Source: an uncultured Muribaculaceae bacterium (GTDB lineage Bacteria > Bacteroidota > Bacteroidia > Bacteroidales > Muribaculaceae). Taken from it: 64,000 nucleotides of DNA. Numbering within the stretch: position 1 is the stretch's first letter; each line of letters begins with the position of its first letter. The stretch lies in NCBI GenBank assembly GCA_964562375.1, contig CAZLSW010000001.1, positions 32,871 through 96,870 on the forward strand, in the 5' to 3' direction. A program made the position numbers and the translations under genes. This document shows, piece by piece, positions 5,544 to 57,307 of the stretch. The notes below the pieces were generated by a model, which saw only the letters and a list, made by a program, of their open reading frames with translations, was not told the origin of the DNA and ran no database searches.

Positions 5544-6500
5544 ATGACTGTTGACAAACACCCGGAAAGGGATGCCGAAAAACTCAAAGAAGAGATAAAG
5601 CTACTGAAAGAGGAGCGCGGCGCGGTGATCCTGGGTCATTATTACACCGAAGGCGACGTGCAGGACGTGGCCGACTTCATCGGCGACTCGCTTGCCTTGG
5701 CTCAAGTGGCCAAGACCCTGGAGGCCCCAGTGGTGGTGATGTGCGGCGTTCACTTCATGGGGGAGACGGTGAAAATACTGTGCCCCGAGAAGACGGTGCT
5801 CGTTCCCGACTTGGCAGCCGGTTGCTCCCTTGCCGACAGTTGCCCGGCCGATGAGTTTGAGGCTTTCATCAAGGAGCATCCCGGCCACACAGTAATTTCC
5901 TATGTCAACACAACAGCCGGCGTGAAGGCCTTGACCGATATTGTGGTGACGTCGTCCAACGCCAAGAAGGTGGTGGATTCGTTACCCAAGGATGAAAAGA
6001 TAATCTTCGGTCCCGACCGCAATCTGGGTGATTACATCAACCGTTGCACGGGACGAAACATGGTGATATGGAACGGTGCATGCCACGTGCATGAGCAATT
6101 CTCGGTGGAAAAACTTGTGGAGCTTAAAAAGCAGCATCCCCAAGCCAAGGTTTTGGCCCATCCCGAGTGCAAGAAACCCATCCTGTTGCTCGCCGACAAG
6201 GTAGGATCCACCGCCGCTTTGCTCAACTTTGCCAAAGAGAGCGAAGCCAAGGAATTTATAGTGGTTACCGAGAGCGGCATCCTTCACCAGATGCGCAAGG
6301 ATTGCCCCGACAAGGTGTTCATTCCGGCTCCTCCCGAGGACAGCACCTGCGCTTGCAACAATTGCTCGTATATGAAACTCAACACCCTCGAGAAGATAAG
6401 CGACTGTTTGCGCGACCTTAAGCCTCAAATCGAGGTGGATGAGGCTATTATCGACCGTGCCCGCAAGCCAATCGAACGCATGCTGGAGATTAGTAAATAG
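5544..6500 (+). CDS. nadA: Quinolinate synthase
   Basis: 318 aa with ILGHYY and VHFMGE motifs and a cysteine cluster CACNNCSYM. Confidence 0.92.
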   Translation: MTVDKHPERDAEKLKEEIKLLKEERGAVILGHYYTEGDVQDVADFIGDSLALAQVAKTLEAPVVVMCGVHFMGETVKILCPEKTVLVPDLAAGCSLADSCPADEFEAFIKEHPGHTVISYVNTTAGVKALTDIVVTSSNAKKVVDSLPKDEKIIFGPDRNLGDYINRCTGRNMVIWNGACHVHEQFSVEKLVELKKQHPQAKVLAHPECKKPILLLADKVGSTAALLNFAKESEAKEFIVVTESGILHQMRKDCPDKVFIPAPPEDSTCACNNCSYMKLNTLEKISDCLRDLKPQIEVDEAIIDRARKPIERMLEISK

Positions 6501-15267: not shown

Positions 15268-16002
15268 CTATTTTGACAAGATTTCGGAAAGCATATCTTG
15301 GACATCGTAGAATCCCTTGCGGCCTTGGAGCCACTCGGCGGCCATCACGGCGCCCAGAGCGAAACCGTCGCGCGACTTGGCCCGGTGCTCGATGGTGATG
15401 GTGTCCACAGGGCTATCCCAGGCGATGATATGGGTCCCGGGAACCTCCCCCTCGCGCTCGTGGGCTATGCCCAGGTGAGGTGCGGTTTGATCGGGGAGTT
15501 CGTTCCAGTCCTTATAGCGTGAATTGTTGGCTAAAATGCCTTCAGCCAAGGTAATAGCCGTGCCACTGGGATGGTCGAGCTTGTGGATGTGATGTATCTC
15601 CTTCATTGAGGCGTTGTACTGGTCGAAATGGTCCATGAGCTTGGCCAACTCGGCGTTAACCTTGAAGAACAGGTTGACACCGATGCTGTAATTGGAGCTC
15701 CACATAAAGCCCACGCCCTTGTCCTTGGCCAATTCTTTAGCTTCAGGCAGGGCGTCGGCCCAACCCGTTGACCCTGAGACTGTGGGGATGCCGCGGGAAA
15801 TCGCTTTGCGGCAATTGTCGGCCGCAGTGTGCGGTGTCGAGAATTCGATGATGGCATCCGAGGAGAGTAGGGCAGGCGAGTCCCAGTCCTGGGGATTGTC
15901 AACGTCAATCACACACGCTATTTCGTGGCCGCGCTCACGAGCGATGCGCTCAATCGCGTGGCCCATTTTTCCGTAACCTACGATGGAGATTTTCATTTTC
16001 AT
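15268..16002 (-). CDS. dapB: 4-hydroxy-tetrahydrodipicolinate reductase
   Basis: IVGYGKMGH NAD(P) fold and EIHHIHKLDHPSGTA motif. Start at MKMKISIV (ATG 16002, alternative 15996); the ORF is open to 16059. Confidence 0.92.
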   Translation of the reverse strand: MKMKISIVGYGKMGHAIERIARERGHEIACVIDVDNPQDWDSPALLSSDAIIEFSTPHTAADNCRKAISRGIPTVSGSTGWADALPEAKELAKDKGVGFMWSSNYSIGVNLFFKVNAELAKLMDHFDQYNASMKEIHHIHKLDHPSGTAITLAEGILANNSRYKDWNELPDQTAPHLGIAHEREGEVPGTHIIAWDSPVDTITIEHRAKSRDGFALGAVMAAEWLQGRKGFYDVQDMLSEILSK

Positions 16003-16081
16003 CAATTTATTAGACGCGAAGGTACAAAAAAAGTTGCAATCCTTTGGTGAAAATGACATATACCACGGCTCACCTCAACGG

Positions 16082-16089
16082 TAACTTTG
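16082..16089 (+). promoter_or_regulatory. Bacteroidetes-type -7 promoter box TAACTTTG
   Basis: Exact match to TAnnTTTG 14 nt upstream of the ATG at 16103. No clear -33 TTTG at standard spacing. Confidence 0.4.
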
Positions 16090-16102
16090 CGGAAAAAACT
16101 TT

Positions 16103-16648
16103 ATGGTAATCTCAATTTCACAATCTGAAATGCTGGTTCTGTGGCGCCAACTGCGCTATAATGAGCCTATTAGAAACGACGCCGCGGTAACCCGTGTGGA
16201 TGGTGTCGACCGCGACCGTCTCCACCAAGTGGAAATGCGCAACTGGTACCTCAATCTCCTGGCTACTGGTCATTTACGCTACCTGAAAATTAGCGATATC
16301 GCCACCCAGGTCGCCGTAACCGACATGGGCGACGGCACGGGTAGAGTGCTGTTGCCTGAGAAGTGTGTACGTCCACTGTGTGTTACCTTGGACGGCTGGG
16401 ATCGCTGCGCTCGGGTGGTGGAGCCCGATTCCCTAGAGGCTGAGATGCAGCTCAATGAATTCAGCCGGGGTAGAACGGTTGAGCCGGTGGCCGTGCATTA
16501 TCCGGGTCAACTGAGGCTATACTCCCTGGTCGATGGAGTAACGCCCAAGATCACATCCCTGCGCTGCGTCATGGAGCCCTCCGACGGCGTCTACGAGCTC
16601 GACGACAGCGCCCTATTAACCATTAACCCTTTAACCATTAACCATTAA
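16103..16648 (+). CDS. Hypothetical protein, first gene of the portal-like cluster
   Basis: 181-aa ORF ending 5 nt before the portal-like gene. The last codons are encoded by a (TTAACCA)n repeat. No family recognised. Confidence 0.5.
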   Translation: MVISISQSEMLVLWRQLRYNEPIRNDAAVTRVDGVDRDRLHQVEMRNWYLNLLATGHLRYLKISDIATQVAVTDMGDGTGRVLLPEKCVRPLCVTLDGWDRCARVVEPDSLEAEMQLNEFSRGRTVEPVAVHYPGQLRLYSLVDGVTPKITSLRCVMEPSDGVYELDDSALLTINPLTINH

Positions 16649-16652
16649 ACAA

Positions 16653-18032
16653 ATGGAAACCACTGAAAAAATTATCTCCCTTGAGGTCCTCGCCGCCTCC
16701 CGACGTGCCTGGAACCGCATGGCCAACATCCGCCAAAACCGCTCCCGTTTCAAGGATTTCACCTACGGCAAACAATGGGGCGACAAAGAGAAAACACCTG
16801 AGGGTATCACCCTCACCGAAGAGCAACTCACTATCAATCAAGGTGCTCGTCCCCAAACCAACAACCTCATCCGTCAGATGGTGAAGACCATCATTGGTCG
16901 ATATCGCCAGCAACAGGCCGAGCGACAAATCCAGCACGGCCTCAAGGGCCTTTATCGCCGAAATATGCTCCCCGAACTCGATTCCCGGCTCCTCGAGGAA
17001 TTCCTAATCTCGGGTTGCGCTATCCAACGTATAAGCACCGAAACCACCATGAAAGGCCGCGGCCCATGGGTGGAGAACGTAAATCCCAACACATTCTTTG
17101 TCAACGACTTCCGCGATCCTCGCGGCTGGGACGTGGAGCTTCTTGGCATGGTGCATGATTGGAGCCTACGTGAGGTGATCATGCGCTTCGGCCACGGCGA
17201 CCCCGACCGTATAGAGCGCCTTCGCGAGGTATACAGCATTGTCCGAGGAGAGTCGTTCCTCAATGGCGATTTTCTTGGCGGTCCTACCGACCGCTGCCGG
17301 GTAATCGAGGCTTGGACCCTTGAGAGTCATGGACTTATCGAAGTCCACGACCCCGTGAGAGGCGTCTATGAGGTGTTGGACGCCGCCTGCATCGATGATG
17401 TCAACGCTCAAAACGGCCAGCGACGCCGTAAAGGTATCCCCGAGCGTCGCGTGCGCCAGTGCATATCCACATTCTGGCGTTGCCGTTACATGTCGCCCAC
17501 AGGCGAGTTATTGCACAGTTATATCGCTGAGCAGCACCCATTTGTATTCAAGTTTTACCCCCTCACCGACGGCGAGGTACATTCCTTTGTCGAGGATATT
17601 ATCCATCAGCAAAAGCACGTCAACCGCATCATCACAATGGTCGATCAAGTGATGCGCACTTCAGCCAAGGGCGCTCTCCTTTATCCCGTGCAGTGCCTCA
17701 CAAAGGGTACCTCAATCAAGGACATTTCTAAGGTGTGGAGCGCACCCGACGCCGTCATTCCCTACAACGCTTCCAGCCTCGGCGAACCCCACCAGATCAC
17801 GACCTCCTCCGGCGACATTGGAGCCTACAACCTTTTGAATCTCGAGCTCCAACTCTTGCAGGATGTCTCTGGCGTTGGCGACGCCCTGTTGGGCAAAAAT
17901 ATCTCGGCCGCCAAGGGCGAAGGGGTATACGAGGCTCAGGTGAGAAACGCCACAATCGCCATCTCCGACCTTCTCGAAACATTCCAATCTCTCGTTGAAC
18001 AACGTGATCAAAAGTTGTTAAAATTGCAATAA
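16653..18032 (+). CDS. Phage portal-like protein
   Basis: The N-terminal RQNRSRFKDFTYGKQWGD...TEEQL...QGARPQTNNLI resembles the Y-x-G-x-QW opening of portal proteins. The C-terminal LELQLLQDVSGVGDALLGKN...AQVRNATIA resembles the portal stem and helix region. Recognition is by eye only. Confidence 0.5.
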   Translation: METTEKIISLEVLAASRRAWNRMANIRQNRSRFKDFTYGKQWGDKEKTPEGITLTEEQLTINQGARPQTNNLIRQMVKTIIGRYRQQQAERQIQHGLKGLYRRNMLPELDSRLLEEFLISGCAIQRISTETTMKGRGPWVENVNPNTFFVNDFRDPRGWDVELLGMVHDWSLREVIMRFGHGDPDRIERLREVYSIVRGESFLNGDFLGGPTDRCRVIEAWTLESHGLIEVHDPVRGVYEVLDAACIDDVNAQNGQRRRKGIPERRVRQCISTFWRCRYMSPTGELLHSYIAEQHPFVFKFYPLTDGEVHSFVEDIIHQQKHVNRIITMVDQVMRTSAKGALLYPVQCLTKGTSIKDISKVWSAPDAVIPYNASSLGEPHQITTSSGDIGAYNLLNLELQLLQDVSGVGDALLGKNISAAKGEGVYEAQVRNATIAISDLLETFQSLVEQRDQKLLKLQ

Positions 18033-18081
18033 TAGCAAAAATAATTGTAAGCTGTGCAATGAAATTGCCCATGCCGACTTG

Positions 18082-18089
18082 TAAATTTG
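18082..18089 (+). promoter_or_regulatory. Bacteroidetes-type -7 promoter box TAAATTTG
   Basis: Exact TAnnTTTG 31 nt upstream of the ATG at 18120. It overlaps the TTG that opens the ORF-track ORF at 18087, arguing for the later start. Confidence 0.45.
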
Positions 18090-18119
18090 TCAAAAATTCT
18101 AAGATATACATCTAAAACT

Positions 18120-18566
18120 ATGACAACTCGAAACACACAATCAATCTTGCGTCAGCGACGCGATCGCCACTTGGTTTTGGCGATCCGTCGCGTGATTCAG
18201 GAGGCTCACCACCGCGGCGAAATGCCCCTGATGAGCGAGGTCGCCGCAAGGGCCGTTAAGCAAGCCGCCCCCGGCTATTACGTGGAATATTCCACAGCTC
18301 AGCAGATGATGTACCGCAGCGTCGACCACTCACGGCTGTCGCCCCTCCATCAGGTAATGTGGCAAGAGATACGGCAAAAAGCCCAAGGGCGTATCGACAA
18401 TGGTCAAGCACCATCCATGGCTCGCGCCGTCGAAGAGGTCCTGCTTTTGGAGCCTGCCTCCCGTTACTTCATTACCCCCCAGCACGCCCAGCGCATCTAC
18501 CAGCGCCACCGCCACCGCAGGAAGGAAGGCGGTTCGACCTCCTCCCTCCAATATTCCTCTCGTTAG
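18120..18566 (+). CDS. Hypothetical basic protein in the portal-like cluster
   Basis: 148 aa from the ATG at 18120, Arg/His-rich, with its own -7 box. No family recognised. Confidence 0.45.
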   Translation: MTTRNTQSILRQRRDRHLVLAIRRVIQEAHHRGEMPLMSEVAARAVKQAAPGYYVEYSTAQQMMYRSVDHSRLSPLHQVMWQEIRQKAQGRIDNGQAPSMARAVEEVLLLEPASRYFITPQHAQRIYQRHRHRRKEGGSTSSLQYSSR

Positions 18567-18715
18567 TTCAACTTTCTCAAGTGTTGAAACCACGAATTAA
18601 CACTAATGAACACCAACAAATTAACAGGGTTTCTAATAAATTTTAGAGAGCTAACGCTCTTTAATTAACACTAATGCAGATAGCGTTGCGTTATGGAAAT
18701 TCGTGTTGATACTTC
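18560..18715 (+). repeat. AT-rich 3'-flank repeat element, copy B
   Basis: Shares TAGTTCAA.TTT..CAAGT...GAAACCAC.AATTAACACTAAT with copy A in direct orientation. The sub-block CACTAATG..GATAGCGTT.C.TTATGGAAATTCGTGTT is inverted relative to copy A. Confidence 0.7.
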
Positions 18716-18762
18716 TCCCAGCCCGGTCACGTCCCCTCCTTAATCCTTAATCCTTTATTTAT

Positions 18763-19164
18763 ATGACAGTTATCTCTTTATCCACTGTGGAAAAAACCAT
18801 CTACGCCCTGGCTGCATTGCGCAGCCACTACTCCCGCCGTCGTTCCGAGACGGTGCCCCTGTTGACCCGCGACCACGGGCCGGCCCTCCGACTGCTGGCC
18901 GTCGACGCTGTGGCCGACATCGCCCAGCGCATCGGCATCGAAGCCACCTACGACGGCGACGACCAGGTGACACTCCAGCTCGACTCTGACGACCTCACCG
19001 TTGTCCGGCTTATCCACCATGCCGCGGCTATGCTCACCCTCTCCACGGCCAATGTGGGCTACGACCCGGAGGCCGTCGACGACTACGCCGACAAGGCTGA
19101 GGGACTCATCGCCCAGCTTCCCCAGCCTAGCCTCACCATAGAGCGCAAGCTCCCCTACATGTAA
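18763..19164 (+). CDS. Hypothetical small helical protein (size and position compatible with a head-tail connector or adaptor)
   Basis: 133-aa ORF with an ATG start, followed by a perfect 18-bp hairpin. The functional guess rests only on context and size. Confidence 0.4.
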   Translation: MTVISLSTVEKTIYALAALRSHYSRRRSETVPLLTRDHGPALRLLAVDAVADIAQRIGIEATYDGDDQVTLQLDSDDLTVVRLIHHAAAMLTLSTANVGYDPEAVDDYADKAEGLIAQLPQPSLTIERKLPYM

Positions 19165-19166
19165 GA

Positions 19167-19208
19167 AAATCGTAATAACGTTATCACTCAATAACGTTAT
19201 TACGATTT
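19167..19208 (+). terminator. Perfect 18-bp stem-loop closing the portal-like cluster
   Basis: AAATCGTAATAACGTTAT / ATAACGTTATTACGATTT with a 6-nt loop, starting 3 nt after the stop at 19164. Confidence 0.6.
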
Positions 19209-19465
19209 CGTAATCAAATGATTACAATGGTTATTCACAAGGCGAGGGCAGTTATTATGCCAGCCAGAAGCGCCAGGCGCGCCAAGCGGGATATCCACCG
19301 AATGTGGCGGTCGCGGCGAGCGAAGCTGTCTTTGATATCGGTTACAATCGGTAGCATAGTTGTGTAAGCAAAGAAAGGGTTAATAAACTAAGTGAACATC
19401 ATTTTCCTTTATAACAATCAACTATGCCTTTTTGGCTCGCCAAAACCGCAAAAAAAGCGTTAAAG

Positions 19466-19566
19466 CAGGAGGTCCCGCCGTGTCGGCGGGACAGTTAGAC
19501 AAGAAGTCCCGCCGTGTCGGTGGGACAATAATTCTCTCGGGCCGACACGGCCCGACATCCTACTTG
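19466..19566. repeat. REP-like palindrome cluster (3 copies) downstream of asnS
   Basis: GTCCCGCCGTGTCGGCGGGAC, GTCCCGCCGTGTCGGTGGGAC and the inverted GGGCCGACACGGCCCGAC, with AGGA(A/G)GT / ACAG flanks. Confidence 0.9.
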
Positions 19567-19568
19567 CT

Positions 19569-20957
19569 TTAGAATTCGGCGTTCTTCGGCGTACGCGGGA
19601 ATGGGATCACGTCGCGGATATTGGTCATGCCCGTCACGAAAAGCACCAGACGCTCGAAACCAAGACCGAAACCGGCGTGAGGCACCGTGCCGAAACGGCG
19701 AGTATCGAGATACCACCACATGTCCTTCATCGGGATGTTCAGCTCCTCGATGCGGGCCATGAGCTTGTCGTAATTCTCCTCGCGTTCCGAGCCACCGATG
19801 ATCTCCCCGATGTTGGGGAACAGCACGTCCATGGCGCGCACGGTCTTGCCGTCCTCGTTCTGCTTCATGTAGAAAGCCTTGATCTCCTTGGGATAATCGG
19901 TGAGGATCACCGGGGTCTTGAAATGCTCCTCCACCAGGTAGCGCTCGTGCTCGCTCTGCAGGTCGGCGCCCCAGTAGACGGGGAACTCAAATTTCTTTCC
20001 CGATTTCTCCAAGATTTCCACGCCCTCGGTGTAGGTAAGGCGCTTGAATGGCTTGGCCAGTACCCCCTCCAAGCGCGCGATCAGCTCGGGGTCGTACATT
20101 TTCTGCAGGAACTCGATGTCGTCGCGGCAGTTGTCAAGGGCGTAACGGATGCAGTATTTCACGAACTCCTCGGCCAGGTCCATGTTGTCGGTGATGTCGT
20201 AGAAGGCCATCTCAGGCTCAATCATCCAGAACTCGGCCAAGTGGCGCGGGGTATTGGAATTCTCGGCGCGGAAGGTGGGGCCGAAGGTGTAAATCTCGCC
20301 GATCGCGGTGGCTCCAAGCTCGCCCTCCAGTTGGCCCGACACGGTCAATGCCGTGGGCTTGCCGAAGAAGTCCTGCGAGTAATCCACGGCACCCTCCTCG
20401 GTTTTGGGCAACTCATTAAGGGGTAAGGTGGTAACCTGGAACATCGCGCCGGCGCCCTCGCAGTCGCTTGCCGTGATCAACGGCGTGTTGAGGTAGTAGA
20501 AACCTTTATCCTGGAAGAACTTGTGGATGGCGTAGGCCAAAGCCGAGCGCACGCGCAGGACGGCCCCGAACGTGTTGGTGCGGGGACGCAAGTGGGCAAT
20601 CTCGCGCAGGAACTCCAGGGAGTGTCCTTTCTTCTGCAGCGGATAAGCCTCGGGATCGGCTGTGCCGTACACCTCAAGCTCGGTAGCTTGGATCTCGGTG
20701 GCCTGGCCCTTGCCCATCGATTCCACGAGGTCGCCCACGACGTGGATCGAGGCCCCGGTGGTGATAGGCTTAAGCTGCTCCTCGGTGAAGCGGTCGAGGG
20801 GGAACACGATCTGGATATTGTTGATCGTGGAGCCGTCGTTCAGTGCCACAAACTGCACGTTTTTGTTGCCGCGGCGGGTGCGCACCCACCCTTTGACGCT
20901 CACTTTCTCGCCCACTTTATCCTTGGTGAGAATATCCTTGATTTTGCTTCTTTTCAT
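19569..20957 (-). CDS. asnS: Asparagine--tRNA ligase
   Basis: Class II motifs [21 protein letters not shown] and GFGLGFERL. Start at [10 protein letters not shown] (ATG 20957). Confidence 0.95.
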
Positions 20958-21088: not shown

Positions 21089-22627
21089 TTATTCGAAGGA
21101 GCCCATTTTGAGGAAGTTAACCTCTTCCTGGGTGAGGTAACGCCAGCGGCCGCGGGGGAGGTTTTTCTTGGTCAGGCCCGCGAAGTACACGCGGTCGAGC
21201 TTGGTCACGTGGTAACCCAGCGACTCGAAGATACGGCGAACGACGCGATTGCGGCCCGAGTGGATCTCGATGCCCGCCTGGTTGCGGTCGGTCTCGGTGG
21301 CGTAGGAGATGGCGTCGGCGTGGATGGGGCCGTCGTCAAGCTCGATGCCGTCGGCGATACGCTGCATATCCTCCTCGGCGATGTCCTTGTCACACCATAC
21401 GTGGTAGATTTTCTTCTTCACGTATTTGGGGTGGGTGAGCTTGGAGGCCAGGTCACCGTCGTTGGTCAACAGCAGCACGCCGGTGGTGTTGCGGTCCAAG
21501 CGACCCACGGGGTAGATACGCTCGTTGCATGCGCCCTTCACCAGGTCCATAACCGTGGTGCGGCCGTTGGGGTCGTCGCTCGTGGTGACGCAATCCTTCG
21601 GTTTGTTAAGCAGGATGTAGCATTTGCTCTCCAGAGCCACCACCTTCTCATCGTATTCAACGACATCCGAGTGGGAGATCTTGGTACCCAGCTCGGTAAC
21701 AACGTTGCCGTTGACCTTCACCAAGCCCTGCTGGATGAACTCGTCGGCCTCGCGGCGCGAGCAGATACCGGCGTTGGCCATGAACTTGTTCAGACGAATC
21801 TGCTCATTGGGATCGGGTATCGGCATTTCGTACTCGATACGCTTGGGGCGCGGAGTGAAGCTCTTGCCGCGTGAGGGCATGAACCCTTGCTGACCCTGCT
21901 GGCGACGGTTGTTGTACCCGCCTTGCTGACGGTTGTTGTAGCCGCCCTGGCGGTTATTGTAACCACCCTGGCGGTTGTTGTTGTAGCCACCCTGACGGTT
22001 GTTGTTGTAGCCACCCTGGCGGTTGTTGTTGTAGCCGCCCTGACGGTTGTATCCGCCCTGTTGGCGATTCTGGCCTTGGTGACCGGGGTTGTTGTAACCG
22101 CCTTGGCGATTGTTGTATCCGCCCTGGCGATTGTTGTTGTAACCGCCTTGGCGGTTGTTATTGTATCCACCCTGCTGGCGAGGCTGGTAGCCGCCGGCGT
22201 TGGGACGCGGCTGGTAGCCTGTGTTGGGGCGGGGCTGGTAGCCTTGGGTTGGGGTAGCGCCGGCTGCGCCCTCGGCGGTCTCGCCTTCCTTGGCCTCGCC
22301 CTGGGGGGCGGCGGAGGGGGTACCGTAGGTGTTGGGACGCGGCTGATAGCCACCACCTTGGTAGTTATTGTTATAGCGATTGTAGCCCCCCTGCTGGCGA
22401 TTTTGGTAGCCTCCAGCGTTGTTGTAGCGGTTTTGGTAACCACCCTGTTGGCGTGGCTGATAGGGGCGCGGCTGGTAGGGGCGGTCGCCCGTGGGGGCGG
22501 CGTCGCTGTTGTGATCGTTCATTGAGCTGTAGCTCGACTTTTCATAGCGTGAGCCTTCGTGATCGTCGGCCACCGCACGGCTCTCGCCGATTCTGGGTCG
22601 TTTCCCTTTTTTGTCGTTACTTTCCAT
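21089..22627 (-). CDS. Pseudouridine synthase (RluB/RsuA family) with a roughly 250-aa N-terminal Gly/Tyr/Asn/Gln/Arg repeat region
   Basis: C-terminal half has an S4 domain (IRLNKFMANAGICSRREADEFI) and the catalytic VGRLDRNTTGVLLLTNDG. The N-terminal half is NRQGGYNN-type repeats. Confidence 0.88.
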   Translation of the reverse strand: MESNDKKGKRPRIGESRAVADDHEGSRYEKSSYSSMNDHNSDAAPTGDRPYQPRPYQPRQQGGYQNRYNNAGGYQNRQQGGYNRYNNNYQGGGYQPRPNTYGTPSAAPQGEAKEGETAEGAAGATPTQGYQPRPNTGYQPRPNAGGYQPRQQGGYNNNRQGGYNNNRQGGYNNRQGGYNNPGHQGQNRQQGGYNRQGGYNNNRQGGYNNNRQGGYNNNRQGGYNNRQGGYNNRQQGGYNNRRQQGQQGFMPSRGKSFTPRPKRIEYEMPIPDPNEQIRLNKFMANAGICSRREADEFIQQGLVKVNGNVVTELGTKISHSDVVEYDEKVVALESKCYILLNKPKDCVTTSDDPNGRTTVMDLVKGACNERIYPVGRLDRNTTGVLLLTNDGDLASKLTHPKYVKKKIYHVWCDKDIAEEDMQRIADGIELDDGPIHADAISYATETDRNQAGIEIHSGRNRVVRRIFESLGYHVTKLDRVYFAGLTKKNLPRGRWRYLTQEEVNFLKMGSFE

Positions 22628-52796: not shown

Positions 52797-53300
52797 ATGG
52801 GCTCCTCTAAATTCCAATCCAATCTCATGAAGCTGCAAAGCAATATGCTCAACTTCGCTTATATGCTTACCGCCAACCGCGACGACGCTTACGACCTCCT
52901 CCAGGACACCACCCTCAAAGCTCTCGACAACGAAGAGAAGTACATCGACAACACCAACTTCAAAGGCTGGGTGTTCACCATCATGCGCAACATCTTCATC
53001 AACAATTACCGCCGCGTGGCCCGCGCAGCCACTGTTGTCGACTCCACCGAAAACCTCTACCACCTGAATCTCTCCCAGGATTCAGGCTTGGAAACTCCCG
53101 AAGGCGCCTTTGGCGCCAAGGAGATCACTCAATACCTGAGCGAGTTTCCCGACGAATATCGCGTTCCTTTCTCGATGCACGTCGCCGGCTACAAGTACAA
53201 CGAGATCGCCGAGAAGATGAACCTCCCCCTTGGCACCGTCAAGAGCCGCATCTTCTTCGCCCGCCAGCGCCTCCAGAAGCGTTTCGCCGATTACCGCTAA
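52797..53300 (+). CDS. RNA polymerase sigma-70 factor, ECF subfamily
   Basis: Region 2 (DLLQDTTLKAL...GWVFTIMRNIFINNYRR) and region 4 (YNEIAEKMNLPLGTVKSRIFFARQRL). No adjacent anti-sigma gene. Confidence 0.9.
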   Translation: MGSSKFQSNLMKLQSNMLNFAYMLTANRDDAYDLLQDTTLKALDNEEKYIDNTNFKGWVFTIMRNIFINNYRRVARAATVVDSTENLYHLNLSQDSGLETPEGAFGAKEITQYLSEFPDEYRVPFSMHVAGYKYNEIAEKMNLPLGTVKSRIFFARQRLQKRFADYR

Positions 53301-53445
53301 GTAGGAGGTCCCGCCGTGCCGGCGCCCCAGCTTAAGTAGGAAGTCCCGCCGTGCCGGCGCCCCAGCTTAAGTAGGAAGCTGGGCCGTGTCGGCCCAGCAG
53401 TATCAACAAGCCACTGTGCCCCGCGGTTTGCCGCGGTGGTCTCCT
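53298..53445. repeat. REP-like cluster (3 copies) plus a CCGCGG-type element, starting on the sigma-factor stop codon
   Basis: TAAGTAGGAGGTCCCGCCGTGCCGGCGCCCCAGC x2, then AGGAAGCTGGGCCGTGTCGGCCCAGCAG and CAAGCCACTGTGCCCCGCGGTTTGCCGCGGTGGTC. Confidence 0.92.
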
Positions 53446-53482: not shown

Positions 53483-53510
53483 AGGGCCGTCCCCGGCTGG
53501 GGACGGCCCT
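53483..53510 (-). terminator. Stem-loop downstream of the capsid-like gene
   Basis: AGGGCCGTCCCC-GGCT-GGGGACGGCCCT, a perfect 12-bp stem, followed on the minus strand by TTTCAATT. Confidence 0.6.
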
Positions 53511-53553: not shown

Positions 53554-54975
53554 CTACTGCTCTTCCTCGGCGGCTGCCAGGGCTGCTTCCTCTTCCTTGG
53601 TGAGCCACTTCACGCGCACGTGGGTCTCAGGGTAGCGGAGAACCATGCAAGAGGCCTCGGTGATGACGATCGCGTCGGTGTTGCGCTGGCCCGAGGTGCG
53701 CAGGTCCAGTTTCTCCGTCTGGAAGGGAATGTGGCAGTACTTGGTCACATACTCAGGGTCGAGAATCAATCCGTCGCGCTCGTGGCCGCACTGGTCGAAC
53801 GTCTCGCAAGGCAACACGTAGAGGGAGCCGAATTTGCTCACGATCTCGTTGAAGTCGATGCCCCACTTGGTCACGCGTTCCTGGGAATTCACCAGGCGAT
53901 TGAACGTTAGGCAGTTGATCTCCTCCACAAGTTTCGACCCCGCAATCAAGATCTTGCGCGTCGATCCGTTGTTCTTGGTGAACGCCTTGTAGCACAGCGC
54001 CACCAGGTCCTTCTCTTTGAAGGTCGACGGCATATTGTGGTCGCGGCCGGCCTGGTTCCAGATTCCGCCGGTGAGGTAAATCTCCCCCTTGGTGGGGTCG
54101 TTGACCTTGGCCTTGGTGCCGAACAGGAAGTTCTTCTCCATGCCCAGGCGCATGTCGTAGATGGCTACCTCCTCCTGGTCGCTGAGGGTCCAGCCTACCT
54201 CTTTGTTGGCCAGTTTCATAAGCGTCGACTGCTCGATCTGGGCCTTGAAGATTTGGCAGTAGTTGTCGGCCTTGGTGGGTACCGCCTCGAAGGAGGTCGT
54301 CTGCACGTCAAGCTCGCCGGCAGCGCGGCCCATGCGGATGAGTTTGGTCCCCTTGTCCATTGCGGGAACCACGGCCACGCCTGAGGTGTCGAAGTTGTTT
54401 ACCGAGATCACGTTGACCGTCTTGGTTTGAGTGCGCGAAACCACATAGAGCACGAGGGGCTGTTGGCTCGAGGCCGTAATGGAGGGCACGAGAATCGTCT
54501 CCGAGGCCTCAAACATGTTCTCCTTGGCTACCGTCAGGGTGAGAGGAGAGTTGGTCGAGCTCCCTTCGGTGGACTTCGCTAGCTCGGTTTCAGTCTCCTT
54601 GGTGTCCACCGAGTAGTACTGCACAGTCATTGAGTCGGCGGCGCGGCTGCCGGTGCAGCGAGTAATCTGGTCAACCGGGGTGGCCATGGGACGGATCTTG
54701 GTGATGCGGTTGTCGATCTCGCTACGCAAGAGGCCCGGGGCTACCTCCTCGGTGACCGAGGTGGTGAGGGGGCCGTCGGTGACGTGGGTCCCTCCCGCGG
54801 TACCCGCTACAACAGCCGCCGAAGCGTAGATCATGTCTCCGTCGCCGCCCAAGGCGAGCCAAAGGGCCACTGTGGCAATCGCCACGAGAAGGGTTACTAC
54901 GCCGTTGTCGCTTTTCACCCACTGGATCATCTGGTCAATCATGCCAGAAAGATTCTTCACATTGAAATTTTTCAT
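53554..54975 (-). CDS. HK97-fold major-capsid-like protein (SU10/DUF5309-type resemblance)
   Basis: 473 aa. ...EIDNRITKIRPMATPVDQI... resembles the N-terminal isP.dTPf signature. Also LSDQEEVAIYDMRLGMEKNFLFG and a C-terminal NTDAIVITEASCMVLRYPE. Recognition is by eye only. Confidence 0.55.
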   Translation of the reverse strand: MKNFNVKNLSGMIDQMIQWVKSDNGVVTLLVAIATVALWLALGGDGDMIYASAAVVAGTAGGTHVTDGPLTTSVTEEVAPGLLRSEIDNRITKIRPMATPVDQITRCTGSRAADSMTVQYYSVDTKETETELAKSTEGSSTNSPLTLTVAKENMFEASETILVPSITASSQQPLVLYVVSRTQTKTVNVISVNNFDTSGVAVVPAMDKGTKLIRMGRAAGELDVQTTSFEAVPTKADNYCQIFKAQIEQSTLMKLANKEVGWTLSDQEEVAIYDMRLGMEKNFLFGTKAKVNDPTKGEIYLTGGIWNQAGRDHNMPSTFKEKDLVALCYKAFTKNNGSTRKILIAGSKLVEEINCLTFNRLVNSQERVTKWGIDFNEIVSKFGSLYVLPCETFDQCGHERDGLILDPEYVTKYCHIPFQTEKLDLRTSGQRNTDAIVITEASCMVLRYPETHVRVKWLTKEEEAALAAAEEEQ

Positions 54976-55112
54976 AAAAGTTGAATGTTGAAAGTTGAAT
55001 GTTGAAAGGTTTCTAGTTCCTAGTTTTTAGTTAATGGGGTAATTTTAAAGGAGGAAAGGATAAAAGGGGCTATTATAAGCCCCCGTTTCGGGGGGGTGGG
55101 GGCCGATTCGGC

Positions 55113-55442
55113 TTAGTCCCAGATGGAGCGTCGGATGTGATTGAGGATCAGGGCCTTGGCCGACTGCGTGGGAGCTTCCAGCTCGCGAGGCCGCGACATC
55201 AGCTCCTCAATGCGTTCATTACGGCCCTTAAGATAACCGCGGCGCTCAGCCGCAGCAAGAACCTCTTCAAGATCCACTCGAGTGACCTCCGGCCTGGGCC
55301 CTTGCGACGCCACTGGCTCGGCTGAGGTGGCACCCTCTTCATTGTGCCCCGTGCACTCTTCACTGAGCCCTGTGCGCTCTTCGTTGTGCCCTGTGCACTC
55401 TTCATTGTGCACTTCCTGGTTGATGGTTTCATTTTCTTCCAT
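55113..55442 (-). CDS. Small acidic/helical protein upstream of the capsid-like gene (scaffold-like position)
   Basis: 109 aa. N-terminus built from 4 x 21-nt repeats (HNEECTG/HNEERTG/LSEECTG/HNEEGAT) and a helical charged C-half (LEEVLAAAERRGYLKGRNERIEELM). Confidence 0.45.
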   Translation of the reverse strand: MEENETINQEVHNEECTGHNEERTGLSEECTGHNEEGATSAEPVASQGPRPEVTRVDLEEVLAAAERRGYLKGRNERIEELMSRPRELEAPTQSAKALILNHIRRSIWD

Positions 55443-55653
55443 AGCATTATTGGTTTTTGGTGGTTAAGAATTACGGTACAAAATTACCCCCGGCTATGGG
55501 CCGAGGGTATGTCATTTTCACCAAAAGCATATTTTTTTTCATGTTATCGACAATTTTGGGCAGTTATCAACACGGGAGGCGGTTTTTGCTTTTTAGTTTT
55601 TGGTATTTGACGGAAATGATGTTACTTTGCATTGTGCAAAATTATAATTGCTT

Positions 55654-56427
55654 ATGGGTAAAATAATTGCAATAGCCAATCAGAAAGGCGGAGTAGGAAA
55701 AACCACCACCACCATCAACTTGGGAGCCTCCCTCGCGGCCGCCGGCCAAAAAGTGCTTATTATCGACGCCGACCCCCAGGCCAACGCCACATCGGGATAC
55801 GGTATCGACCCAAAATCGATGACCTCATCCATTTACGAGTGCCTGGTGGACAACTACCCCCTGCAAGGCTCCCAAGTGAAGACGTGTGTCGAGGGCCTCG
55901 ACCTTATCGGCTCCCGTATCGACCTCGCTGGCGCCGAGCTTGAACTGATCAACAAATCCGACCGCGAGCGCGTGCTTCAACACCTACTGGAGCCTATCGC
56001 TCCACAATACGACTATATCCTCATCGACTGCTCCCCGTCGCTGGGCTTGATAACTGTGAACGCGTTGACAGCCGCGCAGTCGGTAATAATCCCGGTCCAG
56101 GCCGAGTATTTCGCCCTCGAGGGAATCTCCAAGTTGTTGAACACTATACGCATCATCAAGTCGCGACTCAACCCCCATCTCGAGATTGAGGGATTCCTCT
56201 TGACAATGTACGACGCGCGCCTGCGCTTGGCCAACCAGATTTACGAGGAGCTGAAGGGACATTTCGGGCAGATGGTGTTTGACACCGTCATCCCGCGCAA
56301 CATCCGCCTAAGCGAGGCCCCGAGCCACGGCCTGCCGGCGCTCCTCTACGACCCCGAGAGCCGCGGAGCCACATCCCACGTGATGCTCGCCAAAGAAATC
56401 ATCTCCAAGAACTCCAAGAATAAATAA
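55654..56427 (+). CDS. parA: Chromosome partitioning ATPase ParA (Soj)
   Basis: Deviant Walker [15 protein letters not shown] at 55654; the ORF-track start at 55648 is a TTG. Confidence 0.95.
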
Positions 56428-56428
56428 T

Positions 56429-57307
56429 ATGGCATTGAAACGCAACGCATTAGGGCGAGGCCTTGACTCGCTAATACCAATGGACGACGTGCCCGCCGCC
56501 GGCACGACGGCTATAAACACCGTGCCACTAAGCCAAATCTCGCCCAATCCCGATCAACCTCGCCAGACATTCGCCCAGGATGCTCTGGACGACTTGACGC
56601 GCTCGATCACAACGTATGGCGTGCTTCAGCCCATTTCCCTGAGGCAAGTTGGCCCCTCAAGCTACCAGATAATCGCTGGTGAGCGTCGCTATCGTGCCGC
56701 TTTGGCCGCAGGTCTGCGCGAGATCCCCGCATATATACGCGACGCCAACGAGCAAGAGCTCACCGAGATGGCTCTAATCGAGAACATCCAGCGCGAGGAT
56801 CTCAACCCCATCGAAATCGCCCTTACCTACAACAAGCTCATCGACCAATATCACCTCACCCAGGAGCAGCTTTCGGAACGCATCGGCAAAAGTCGAGCTG
56901 TGATCGCCAACGCGTTGCGCATGCTTCGCCTGCACGCTGATGTGCAATTGGCCCTGAGCGAGAGGCGATTGACCGAGGGACATGCCCGCGCTATTCTAAG
57001 GTTGGACGACCACCAGATGCAGAATAAACTGTTCCATCGTATCCTGGCCGAGGACCTGAGCGTGCGCCGCGCCGAAGAGCTTGCCAAAGAGATGCTCGAG
57101 GGGGTGGAAATAACCCCCAAGAAACCCACGCTAAAACGCGAAAAAAACCGCCTTTTCGACGAATTGAAGCAAAACCTCTCCGCCCGCTTTTCCGCTCCCG
57201 TCCAGCTCCATTGCGACGCCAACGGAAAAGGCCGCATTACCTTCTCCTTCCGCGACCAAGAGCAGCTCACCCGCCTGATCGCCCTCTTCGACCAAATCCA
57301 AGGCTAA
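56429..57307 (+). CDS. parB: Chromosome partitioning protein ParB (Spo0J)
   Basis: GERRYRAA box and an HTH region; 292 aa. Starts 2 nt after parA. Confidence 0.95.
   Translation: MALKRNALGRGLDSLIPMDDVPAAGTTAINTVPLSQISPNPDQPRQTFAQDALDDLTRSITTYGVLQPISLRQVGPSSYQIIAGERRYRAALAAGLREIPAYIRDANEQELTEMALIENIQREDLNPIEIALTYNKLIDQYHLTQEQLSERIGKSRAVIANALRMLRLHADVQLALSERRLTEGHARAILRLDDHQMQNKLFHRILAEDLSVRRAEELAKEMLEGVEITPKKPTLKREKNRLFDELKQNLSARFSAPVQLHCDANGKGRITFSFRDQEQLTRLIALFDQIQG

Follow-up and report, generated by a model that had tools for sequence, protein, structure and literature searches.

The 64,000-nucleotide stretch of DNA analysed here (the window) comes from an uncultured Muribaculaceae bacterium (assembly GCA_964562375.1, contig CAZLSW010000001.1, positions 32,871 to 96,870) and carries, between dapB and asnS, a cluster of four open reading frames (ORFs A to D), the second of which encodes a phage portal protein. 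We hold with moderate confidence that this genome encodes, in this cluster and at least one further locus, a domesticated phage head-assembly and DNA-packaging machine that makes a particle resembling a gene transfer agent (GTA). Together with a scaffold-like protein (S) and a major capsid protein (MCP) encoded 35 kb away, the set is most likely no dead prophage and serves the host by building capsid particles. In many gut Bacteroidales chromosomes this gene set is kept intact, contiguous or dispersed, along with a large terminase (TerL) and a protein resembling gp26 of phage BS-TP4; the genes for lysogeny, replication and lysis and any recognisable tail genes have all been lost from it. An earlier, sequence-only reading of the window had flagged the dapB–asnS cluster as a unit at positions 16103 to 19208, bounded by a hairpin. 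Those positions enclose one half of a split cluster, and that cluster belongs to a widespread chromosomal system rather than to a local island; the full unit exceeds the flagged one both in size and in interest. The features of the two loci are as follows.

16043-16060, plus strand: upstream promoter element TTTGGTGAAAATGACATA of the A-portal operon, 21 nt before the -7 box
16082-16089, plus strand: -7 box TAACTTTG of the A and portal promoter, Bacteroidetes-type
16103-16648, plus strand: ORF A, 181 aa
16653-18032, plus strand: ORF B, 459 aa, P22-type portal without the C-terminal crown/barrel
18082-18089, plus strand: -7 box TAAATTTG of the C-D operon promoter, Bacteroidetes-type, without the upstream element
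18120-18566, plus strand: ORF C, 148 aa counted from the ATG, pI 11.0
18567-18706: insertion of about 140 nt between C and D, missing in the relative L007 in the alignment with it
18763-19164, plus strand: ORF D, 133 aa
19167-19184 and 19191-19208, plus strand: perfect 18-bp hairpin with a 6-nt loop, probable terminator of the C-D unit
53484-53509, minus strand: after the MCP stop, GC-rich hairpin GGGCCGTCCCCAGCCGGGGACGGCCC with TTT behind it, read from the sequence, probable terminator
53554-54975, minus strand: MCP, 473 aa, SU10 type (HK97 class)
55113-55442, minus strand: ORF S, 109 aa, acidic, a shortened scaffold-like protein
55479-55486, minus strand: -7 box TAATTTTG of the S-MCP operon
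55508-55525, minus strand: second copy of TTTGGTGAAAATGACATA, S-MCP operon, 21 nt before the -7 box

The four ORFs lie where the sequence-only reading had placed them, and its central claim, that the 459-aa product is a portal, is borne out by Pfam, PHROG, phage homologs and the predicted fold alike. The two peptides that it had quoted, RSRFKDFTYGKQWGD and LQDVSGVGDALLGKN, are both present in the translation. ORF B matches the Pfam family PF16510 (P22_portal; E = 1.6e-15, 57.1 bits against a gathering cut-off of 26.1, profile positions 5-409 of 594) and the portal family PHROG 156 (2.1e-30, profile positions 11-455 of 681), and over 96% of its length it is 32-36% identical to the portals annotated in three temperate Bacteroides phages. 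The structure search that had been proposed as a check finds the portal fold as well: an AlphaFold (AF2) model built from 38 homologs (pLDDT 78, pTM 0.71) gave 97 Foldseek matches in the PDB at E <= 0.001, and the best 50 of the 97 are all phage portal structures, one of them a portal bound to Avs4. The portals of Pan3, crAss001, P22, Sf6, T7 and SU10 are matched with E-values from 4e-13 to 1e-7 and a probability of 1.00. The model thus predicts a portal fold for ORF B, with wing, stem helices, clip and tunnel loop.

What ORF B lacks is the crown or barrel of P22-like portals. In an alignment that set the short chromosomal portals against 86 phage portals (619-694 aa), most of the short ones, including ORF B, ended near residue 531 of the 657-aa BS-TP4 portal, and the ORF B model stops directly after the helix behind the tunnel loop; compared with P22 and the Bacteroides phage portals, roughly the last 125-200 residues are absent. 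Because the profiles are covered to about two-thirds, the alignment ends at about residue 531 and the model ends there too, we conclude that B is a portal without a crown or barrel. As a separate observation, L053, L056, L060 and L062 carry 619-aa portals on chromosomal contigs of up to 1.97 Mb, beside a ferritin gene, and three of them (L053, L056 and L060) also match the giant phage gene gp3; these four could be prophages, or else loci that are only part of the way to domestication.

The second locus lies 35 kb from the A-D cluster on the opposite strand, near parA-parB and an extracytoplasmic function (ECF) sigma gene. Its MCP matches PF17236 (4.6e-51) and phrog_26635 (3.5e-80), is 52-56% identical to the MCPs of contiguous clusters, and in the PDB search matched a phage VP1 major capsid protein (4e-7). 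ORF S is always found directly upstream of MCP across loci. Alignment with phage gp10 (about 260 aa) reveals that S retains only the C-terminal GYLRGRNE...SIWD motif, of the form GY/E-x-RGRN...IW, behind a new acidic low-complexity N-terminus. The consensus terminator scan passed over GGGCCGTCCCCAGCCGGGGACGGCCC because its T run is short.

Several further observations concern this locus. A terminator-like hairpin with a T run lies between the S and MCP genes (55065-55084, minus strand) and could attenuate read-through, thereby setting the ratio of S to MCP. The ECF sigma gene (52797-53300) is convergent with the MCP gene, and parA-parB (55648-57307) is divergent from the S promoter. The N-terminus of MCP (54840-54975; likewise in L006 and L093) forms a hydrophobic helix resembling a signal peptide, which is unusual for an HK97-class capsid protein; it was considered as a novelty and rejected, since phage MCPs carry the same helix.

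None of ORFs A to D matches NCBIfam. The suggestion that the neighbours of the portal are adaptor or connector proteins was not established: A and C are homologs of phage genes, and D is weakly adaptor-like at a non-significant level. Specifically, A is a homolog of BS-TP4 gp13, a head-module protein whose phage members match phrog_22135; an iterative hidden Markov model (HMM) search for A finds 107 ORFs beside MCP or portal genes in chromosomal and phage loci, and A has no match in the PDB or Pfam. C is a homolog of phage gp9, with which the gp9-gp8-gp7 terminase operon of the phages begins. Its HMM matches 103 ORFs, BS-TP4 gp9 among them at 2e-58, and C falls in phrog_27246; its profile has no match among PDB sequences. 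C is a candidate DNA-binding protein, either an activator or, alternatively, a small terminase. The start assigned mechanically to C is a TTG at 18087, inside the promoter box TAAATTTG; given the position of that box, this TTG is not the genuine start.

D is of a different kind. Its 33 homologs all lie in chromosomal clusters and none in phage loci, and neither HMM nor hhalign comparison gave a convincing phage counterpart. In relatives the C and D genes overlap or abut, and a homolog search with a fused C and D query returned 12 proteins, 10 of them D-like and 2 C-like. The AF2 model of D (pLDDT 84, pTM 0.79) predicts a four-helix fold with a small sheet. Its best geometric match is the Sf6 tail adaptor gp7 (5vgt; TM 0.45-0.51, probability 0.66), which at E = 0.36 is non-significant, as are the matches to 'head to tail adaptor' entries of BFVD (probability 0.85, E = 0.52); the D profile matches no PDB sequence. 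Two other origins were considered for D and rejected: that it diverged from phage gp12, A, C or S, for which hhalign was negative, and that it is a homolog of gp23, for which a weak hmmsearch match (1.9e-4) was unsupported by hhalign.

Homologs of the set occur in about 80 IMG/VR contigs and in the isolates BS-TP4, BKO1-TP3 and BF1-TP2 (PQ571277, PQ571269, PQ571263), where the counterparts are gp4 for the portal (650-693 aa), gp7 for TerL, gp9 for C, gp10 for S, gp11 for MCP, gp13 for A, and gp26 for a gene of about 840 aa that we call BIG. These homologies indicate that the portal, A, C, S and MCP descend from the head and packaging module of BS-TP4-type temperate Bacteroides phages. Little else of a phage is present. 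As the sequence-only reading had noted, no recombinase or terminase is adjacent to the cluster; neither these nor other phage genes occur in the 64 kb outside the capsid locus at 53.5-55.5 kb. Comparison of the window with all ORFs of 80 related viral contigs, with prophage-like loci and with the complete BS-TP4 genome yielded no further phage-derived gene. A ferritin-like match at 61.5 kb and an ABC ATPase match at 25.5 kb were rejected as phage-derived and are ordinary genes.

Outside this window the system is widespread. The portal family, with proteins of about 430-500 aa, counts more than 1,600 members (clusters at 90% identity) in Muribaculaceae and other Bacteroidales, the contigs reaching 1.24 Mb, and the same intact gene subset recurs in very many genomes at 37-50% identity. 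In relatives with a contiguous cluster the order is S-MCP-A-portal-C-D, with housekeeping neighbours that vary by genome, and no integrase, tail, lysis or replication gene was found in the flanks of these mini-clusters. BIG and a TerL of 630-650 aa precede the cluster in L018, L019 and L090, and in L082 and L028 TerL lies 5 kb downstream of it. This TerL matches PHROG families of terminase large subunits and the T4 gp17 ATPase domain, and its family comprises more than 2,800 clusters, on long chromosomal contigs. Elsewhere the components are scattered: TerL stands alone after ftsA-ftsZ in L170 and alone near recO in L172, is found together with BIG in L171, and in the metagenome-assembled genome E7081 is about 65 genes from the portal (TerL E7081_02070, portal E7081_01745). 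By hhalign (99.8%, E = 1e-27) BIG is homologous to gp26, a structural protein of BS-TP4, and the BIG profile has no match among PDB sequences.

Three side observations bear on this distribution. In L170, L082 and L028 TerL adjoins the same housekeeping genes (UDP-glucose dehydrogenase-like and Bac_transf), so TerL has a conserved chromosomal neighbourhood of its own. A rumen-type subfamily (L045, L050, L059, L038, L042, L046 and L051, and also L032, L069 and L084) has the order portal-S-MCP-Peptidase_M15_3, or an M15 peptidase followed by the portal; the peptidase (PF08291 at 4e-21) is a possible lysin linked to the system, and no A, C or D is adjacent. Finally, the IMG/VR 'viral' contigs L089 and L090 are chromosomal mini-clusters, L089 being a palindromic assembly artefact that consists of the cluster and its reverse complement; virus catalogues hence include such host loci.

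The dispersed loci are linked by their promoters. The sequence-only reading had placed TAnnTTTG boxes before A and C, and TAACTTTG and TAAATTTG are indeed found there. Across the window the motif is modestly enriched (35 observed, 22.8 +/- 4.6 expected), and the boxes therefore count by virtue of their placement before start codons and their conservation in relatives. As for the upstream element, with up to three mismatches allowed (<=3) the 18-mer TTTGGTGAAAATGACATA has exactly 2 sites in the window, where 0.03 are expected. It is exact in L007 and has 2 mismatches in L008, although the spacer diverges. In distant relatives the box TAACTTTG followed by GCGGAAAAA recurs before the A, BIG and TerL genes, and other lineages have elements of their own:

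Lineage of L018 and L019: element GTAACAATTTRTCCTAC, 20 nt to the box, before BIG and S
Lineage of L082: element CGGATTTTTAAGG, 24 nt to the box, before BIG, S and TerL
Species of E7081: element CAGTTTTGCACTATC, 25 nt to the box, before BIG and S

These lineage elements have no further copies within those loci, and the C promoters of L018, L019, L082, L028 and L173 have the box and lack the lineage element, as in the window. A common element at a fixed distance from the box is thus present in four lineages (that of the window, L018/L019, L082 and the E7081 species). Because dispersed loci of one genome carry the same element at fixed spacing, they form a regulon, a co-regulated set under a lineage-specific promoter element. 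Furthermore, the same promoter logic written in a different sequence in each lineage suggests a system-specific factor that co-evolves with its site, and protein C, which is basic (pI 11) and fast-evolving, would be a candidate for that factor.

The history of the set can be read from its divergence. Relative to L007, with dS of 0.55-0.88, the cluster genes have dN/dS ratios of 0.058 (A), 0.070 (portal), 0.21 (C) and 0.23 (D); those of dapB and asnS are 0.035 and 0.018. The gene order dapB-A-B-C-D-asnS is unchanged in L007; the clusters of other relatives lie among differing housekeeping genes. A tree built by neighbour joining places 76 of the 77 short portals in one clade with no phage portal inside it. 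Mean portal identity is 0.47 within the short group, 0.68 within the phage group and 0.37 across the two. The single clade, the dN/dS values and the kept synteny fit one old domestication followed by vertical descent, and the selection and clade data exclude a decaying remnant.

Given these observations, one can propose how the machine would work. A system-specific DNA-binding factor, for which C is the candidate, would switch on the promoters of A-portal, S-MCP and BIG/TerL; S and MCP would then assemble procapsids on the crown-less portal ring, TerL would fill them with DNA, and D, A or both would close the portal. The outcome would be a GTA-like particle (a viriform) carrying host DNA. In a bolder form, which we put forward only tentatively and regard as somewhat doubtful, this would be the first GTA, or tailless DNA-packaging viriform, of the Bacteroidota: an ancient multi-locus regulon for a P22/SU10-type head with a crown-less portal, inherited across Muribaculaceae and other gut and rumen Bacteroidales, controlled by its own fast-evolving activator (candidate C) and the origin of the as yet unexplained Muribaculaceae chromosomal DNA in gut virus-like particles. 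In the literature we found no description of such a cluster or system in Bacteroidota. Chromosomal DNA of Muribaculaceae (Duncaniella) has been reported in mouse-gut virus-like particles with uniform coverage, by a mechanism called 'uncharacterized' (bioRxiv 10.64898/2026.07.08.737213); this is circumstantial, being compatible with a GTA-like particle and no proof of one.

Several points weigh against this interpretation. Neither TerL nor BIG lies in the 64-kb window, and it is from relatives that this genome is assumed to have them; no tail, receptor-binding, holin or lysis gene was recognised in the window or in the cluster flanks, and the linkage of the M15 peptidase to the cluster is limited to the rumen-type subfamily. 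A portal without a crown or barrel could mean that the role in DNA packaging has been lost, and the adaptor-like fold predicted for D is weak and not significant. That particles are made, that they contain DNA and what A, C and D do are inferences, and protein C is a candidate for the regulator. Vesicles, too, could explain the data on virus-like particles.

Some of the same facts would suit an anti-phage or satellite-like role, in which the host's head genes interfere with or parasitise BS-TP4-type phages; an invader's capsid assembly, for instance, could be poisoned or diverted by the crown-less portal and the short scaffold, or its tails could be borrowed by host capsids. The genes are 32-37% identical to those of a prevalent temperate Bacteroides phage lineage, the portal and scaffold are truncated versions of phage proteins, and tail genes are missing. 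Capsid-forming satellites that steal only tails, reportedly described by Alqurainy et al. in 2023, are an established precedent. We nonetheless consider this role unlikely: there is no integrase, replication gene or att site, and genes scattered in this way, in synteny with housekeeping genes, have no means of moving together as an island. Moreover, a complete MCP and an intact TerL are kept under selection, and a decoy needs neither.

The lost C-terminal part of the portal, the new acidic low-complexity N-terminus of S and the hydrophobic N-terminal helix of MCP could also be taken as signs of a capsid-based compartment or an export device with no remaining part in DNA handling, for example with a shell for protein or RNA cargo and the truncated portal as a pore. 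However, the hydrophobic N-terminus is also found in real phages, no cargo gene is evident, and a full-length TerL with a T4 gp17-like ATPase domain is conserved with the system and in L082 has the same promoter element, which makes such a device quite improbable. An inert prophage remnant without function, which phage structural genes without the rest of the phage would suggest, is barely credible and already contradicted by dN/dS of 0.06-0.23, by the recurrence of the same intact subset at 37-50% identity in so many genomes, by the single portal clade with its common truncation and by the common promoter element kept by the split loci. A domesticated machine that packages DNA into GTA-like particles is the reading that we prefer.

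The surroundings of the A-D cluster deserve a brief description. It is flanked by dapB (DapB_N/DapB_C) on one side and by asnS, a class II tRNA synthetase gene of the Asn/Asp/Lys type, on the other, and beyond these lie a signal peptidase gene, WbqC, PorZ, an RluB-like gene and others. The RluB-like pseudouridine synthase (21089-22627) has an N-terminal low-complexity region of about 250 aa with GGYNNNRQ-type repeats. The perfect 18-bp hairpin at 19167-19208, correctly described in the sequence-only reading, is the only one of its kind in the window (0.03 expected), with a folding energy of -24.6 kcal/mol (z = -7.2). The hairpin of L007 is likewise a perfect 18-bp stem, by way of two compensatory base-pair changes. 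An Rfam scan of 15800-19700 gave no match. The insertion at 18567-18706 contains several short hairpins and, at a distance of 68 nt, two exact copies of AATTAACACTAATG, and could be a small mobile insertion. Just before the start of D are heptamer repeats (TCCTTAA/TCCTTCA), about 3 in the window (18735-18760) and about 7 in L007 (about 5590-5645), and their copy number could tune the expression of D.

Between the hairpin and the asnS terminators (19209-19445), identity to L007 is 95%, rising to 99% over 19301-19400, compared with 80% in the adjoining D coding region. This interval contains, on the minus strand at 19235-19357, a 40-aa ORF (MLPIVTDIKDSFARRDRHIRWISRLARLALLAGIITALAL) with a hydrophobic helix at its C-terminus. 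The ORF is 100% identical in L007 and is found only in the genomes of the window and L007, and its region has no Rfam match. REP-like GC-rich palindromes (GTCCCGCCGTGYCGG...) have 26 matches in the window, where 0.6 are expected, and cluster between genes. Copies are found at 19466-19565, at 53300-53400 and at about 20 other sites, and thus downstream of both sub-loci; the idea that these repeats are part of the system was rejected, as they belong to a window-wide REP-like family.

Muribaculaceae and related Bacteroidales are dominant gut bacteria whose routes of gene exchange are poorly understood. If the set does make particles that carry DNA, horizontal transfer in the gut would have a major channel that has gone unrecognised, and GTAs would be extended to a new phylum and a new phage ancestry; MCP, the portal, TerL and the promoter element would then offer a concrete genetic handle on the particle-borne Muribaculaceae DNA that has been reported and is unexplained. 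Even with another function, the set is a clear case of a phage head module that was domesticated long ago and has a regulon of its own. The loci hold a warning too, in that virus-detection tools will call such chromosomal loci viral, as with L089 and L090 in IMG/VR.

It is informative to set the system beside those already known. The closest true phages are the Bacteroides phages BS-TP4, BKO1-TP3 and BF1-TP2, which have the homologous genes partly in the same order. They differ in having 45-65 kb with an integrase, replication genes, a lysin, a diversity-generating retroelement (DGR) and giant structural genes, none of which the chromosomal set possesses, and in the length of the portal (650-693 aa) and scaffold (about 260 aa), both of which are shortened in the chromosomal set. 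ORF B belongs to the sequence family of P22 gp1 (PF16510) and shares its wing, stem and clip in the predicted fold, but the crown/barrel present in P22 is missing. Encapsulins, which are HK97-fold shells with cargo-targeting peptides and without portal or terminase, are not matched, as a portal and TerL belong to the Bacteroidales system. The cf-PICI satellites likewise have their own capsid, portal and packaging-specificity genes and no tails; unlike the Bacteroidales set, which is split across distant loci, they are discrete excisable islands with an integrase, regulators and replication genes, all of which the set lacks.

Close parallels exist with GTAs and other viriforms, with which the set has in common structural and packaging genes without those for replication, integration and lysogeny, purifying selection with vertical inheritance, and common regulation of several loci. 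A large terminase in the same genome is seen in relatives, and none lies in the 64-kb window; for a tail or delivery device and lysis genes there are only candidates, namely D, BIG and the M15 peptidase. RcGTA of Rhodobacter capsulatus, which the dedicated activator GafA switches on, is similarly a phage-derived head and packaging set free of replication, integration and lysogeny genes, vertically inherited under purifying selection and spread over several loci with a dedicated promoter signal. However, it is siphovirus-like and alphaproteobacterial and has a full tail and lysis genes, whereas the chromosomal set, for which DNA packaging and transfer are proposed, combines a P22/SU10-type head and truncated portal with no recognised tail or lysis genes in a Bacteroidales host. 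FpGTA of Faecalibacterium, a gut commensal, has TerL, portal, scaffold, MCP and hypothetical phage genes and is reported to be podovirus-like (Nat Commun 2026, PMC12946183); it is a single 10.5-kb operon of a member of the Bacillota, and there is experimental evidence for its packaging (PMC12946183). The Bacteroidales set is multi-locus, and resembles FpGTA in its gut commensal host and in its complement of TerL, portal, scaffold and MCP.

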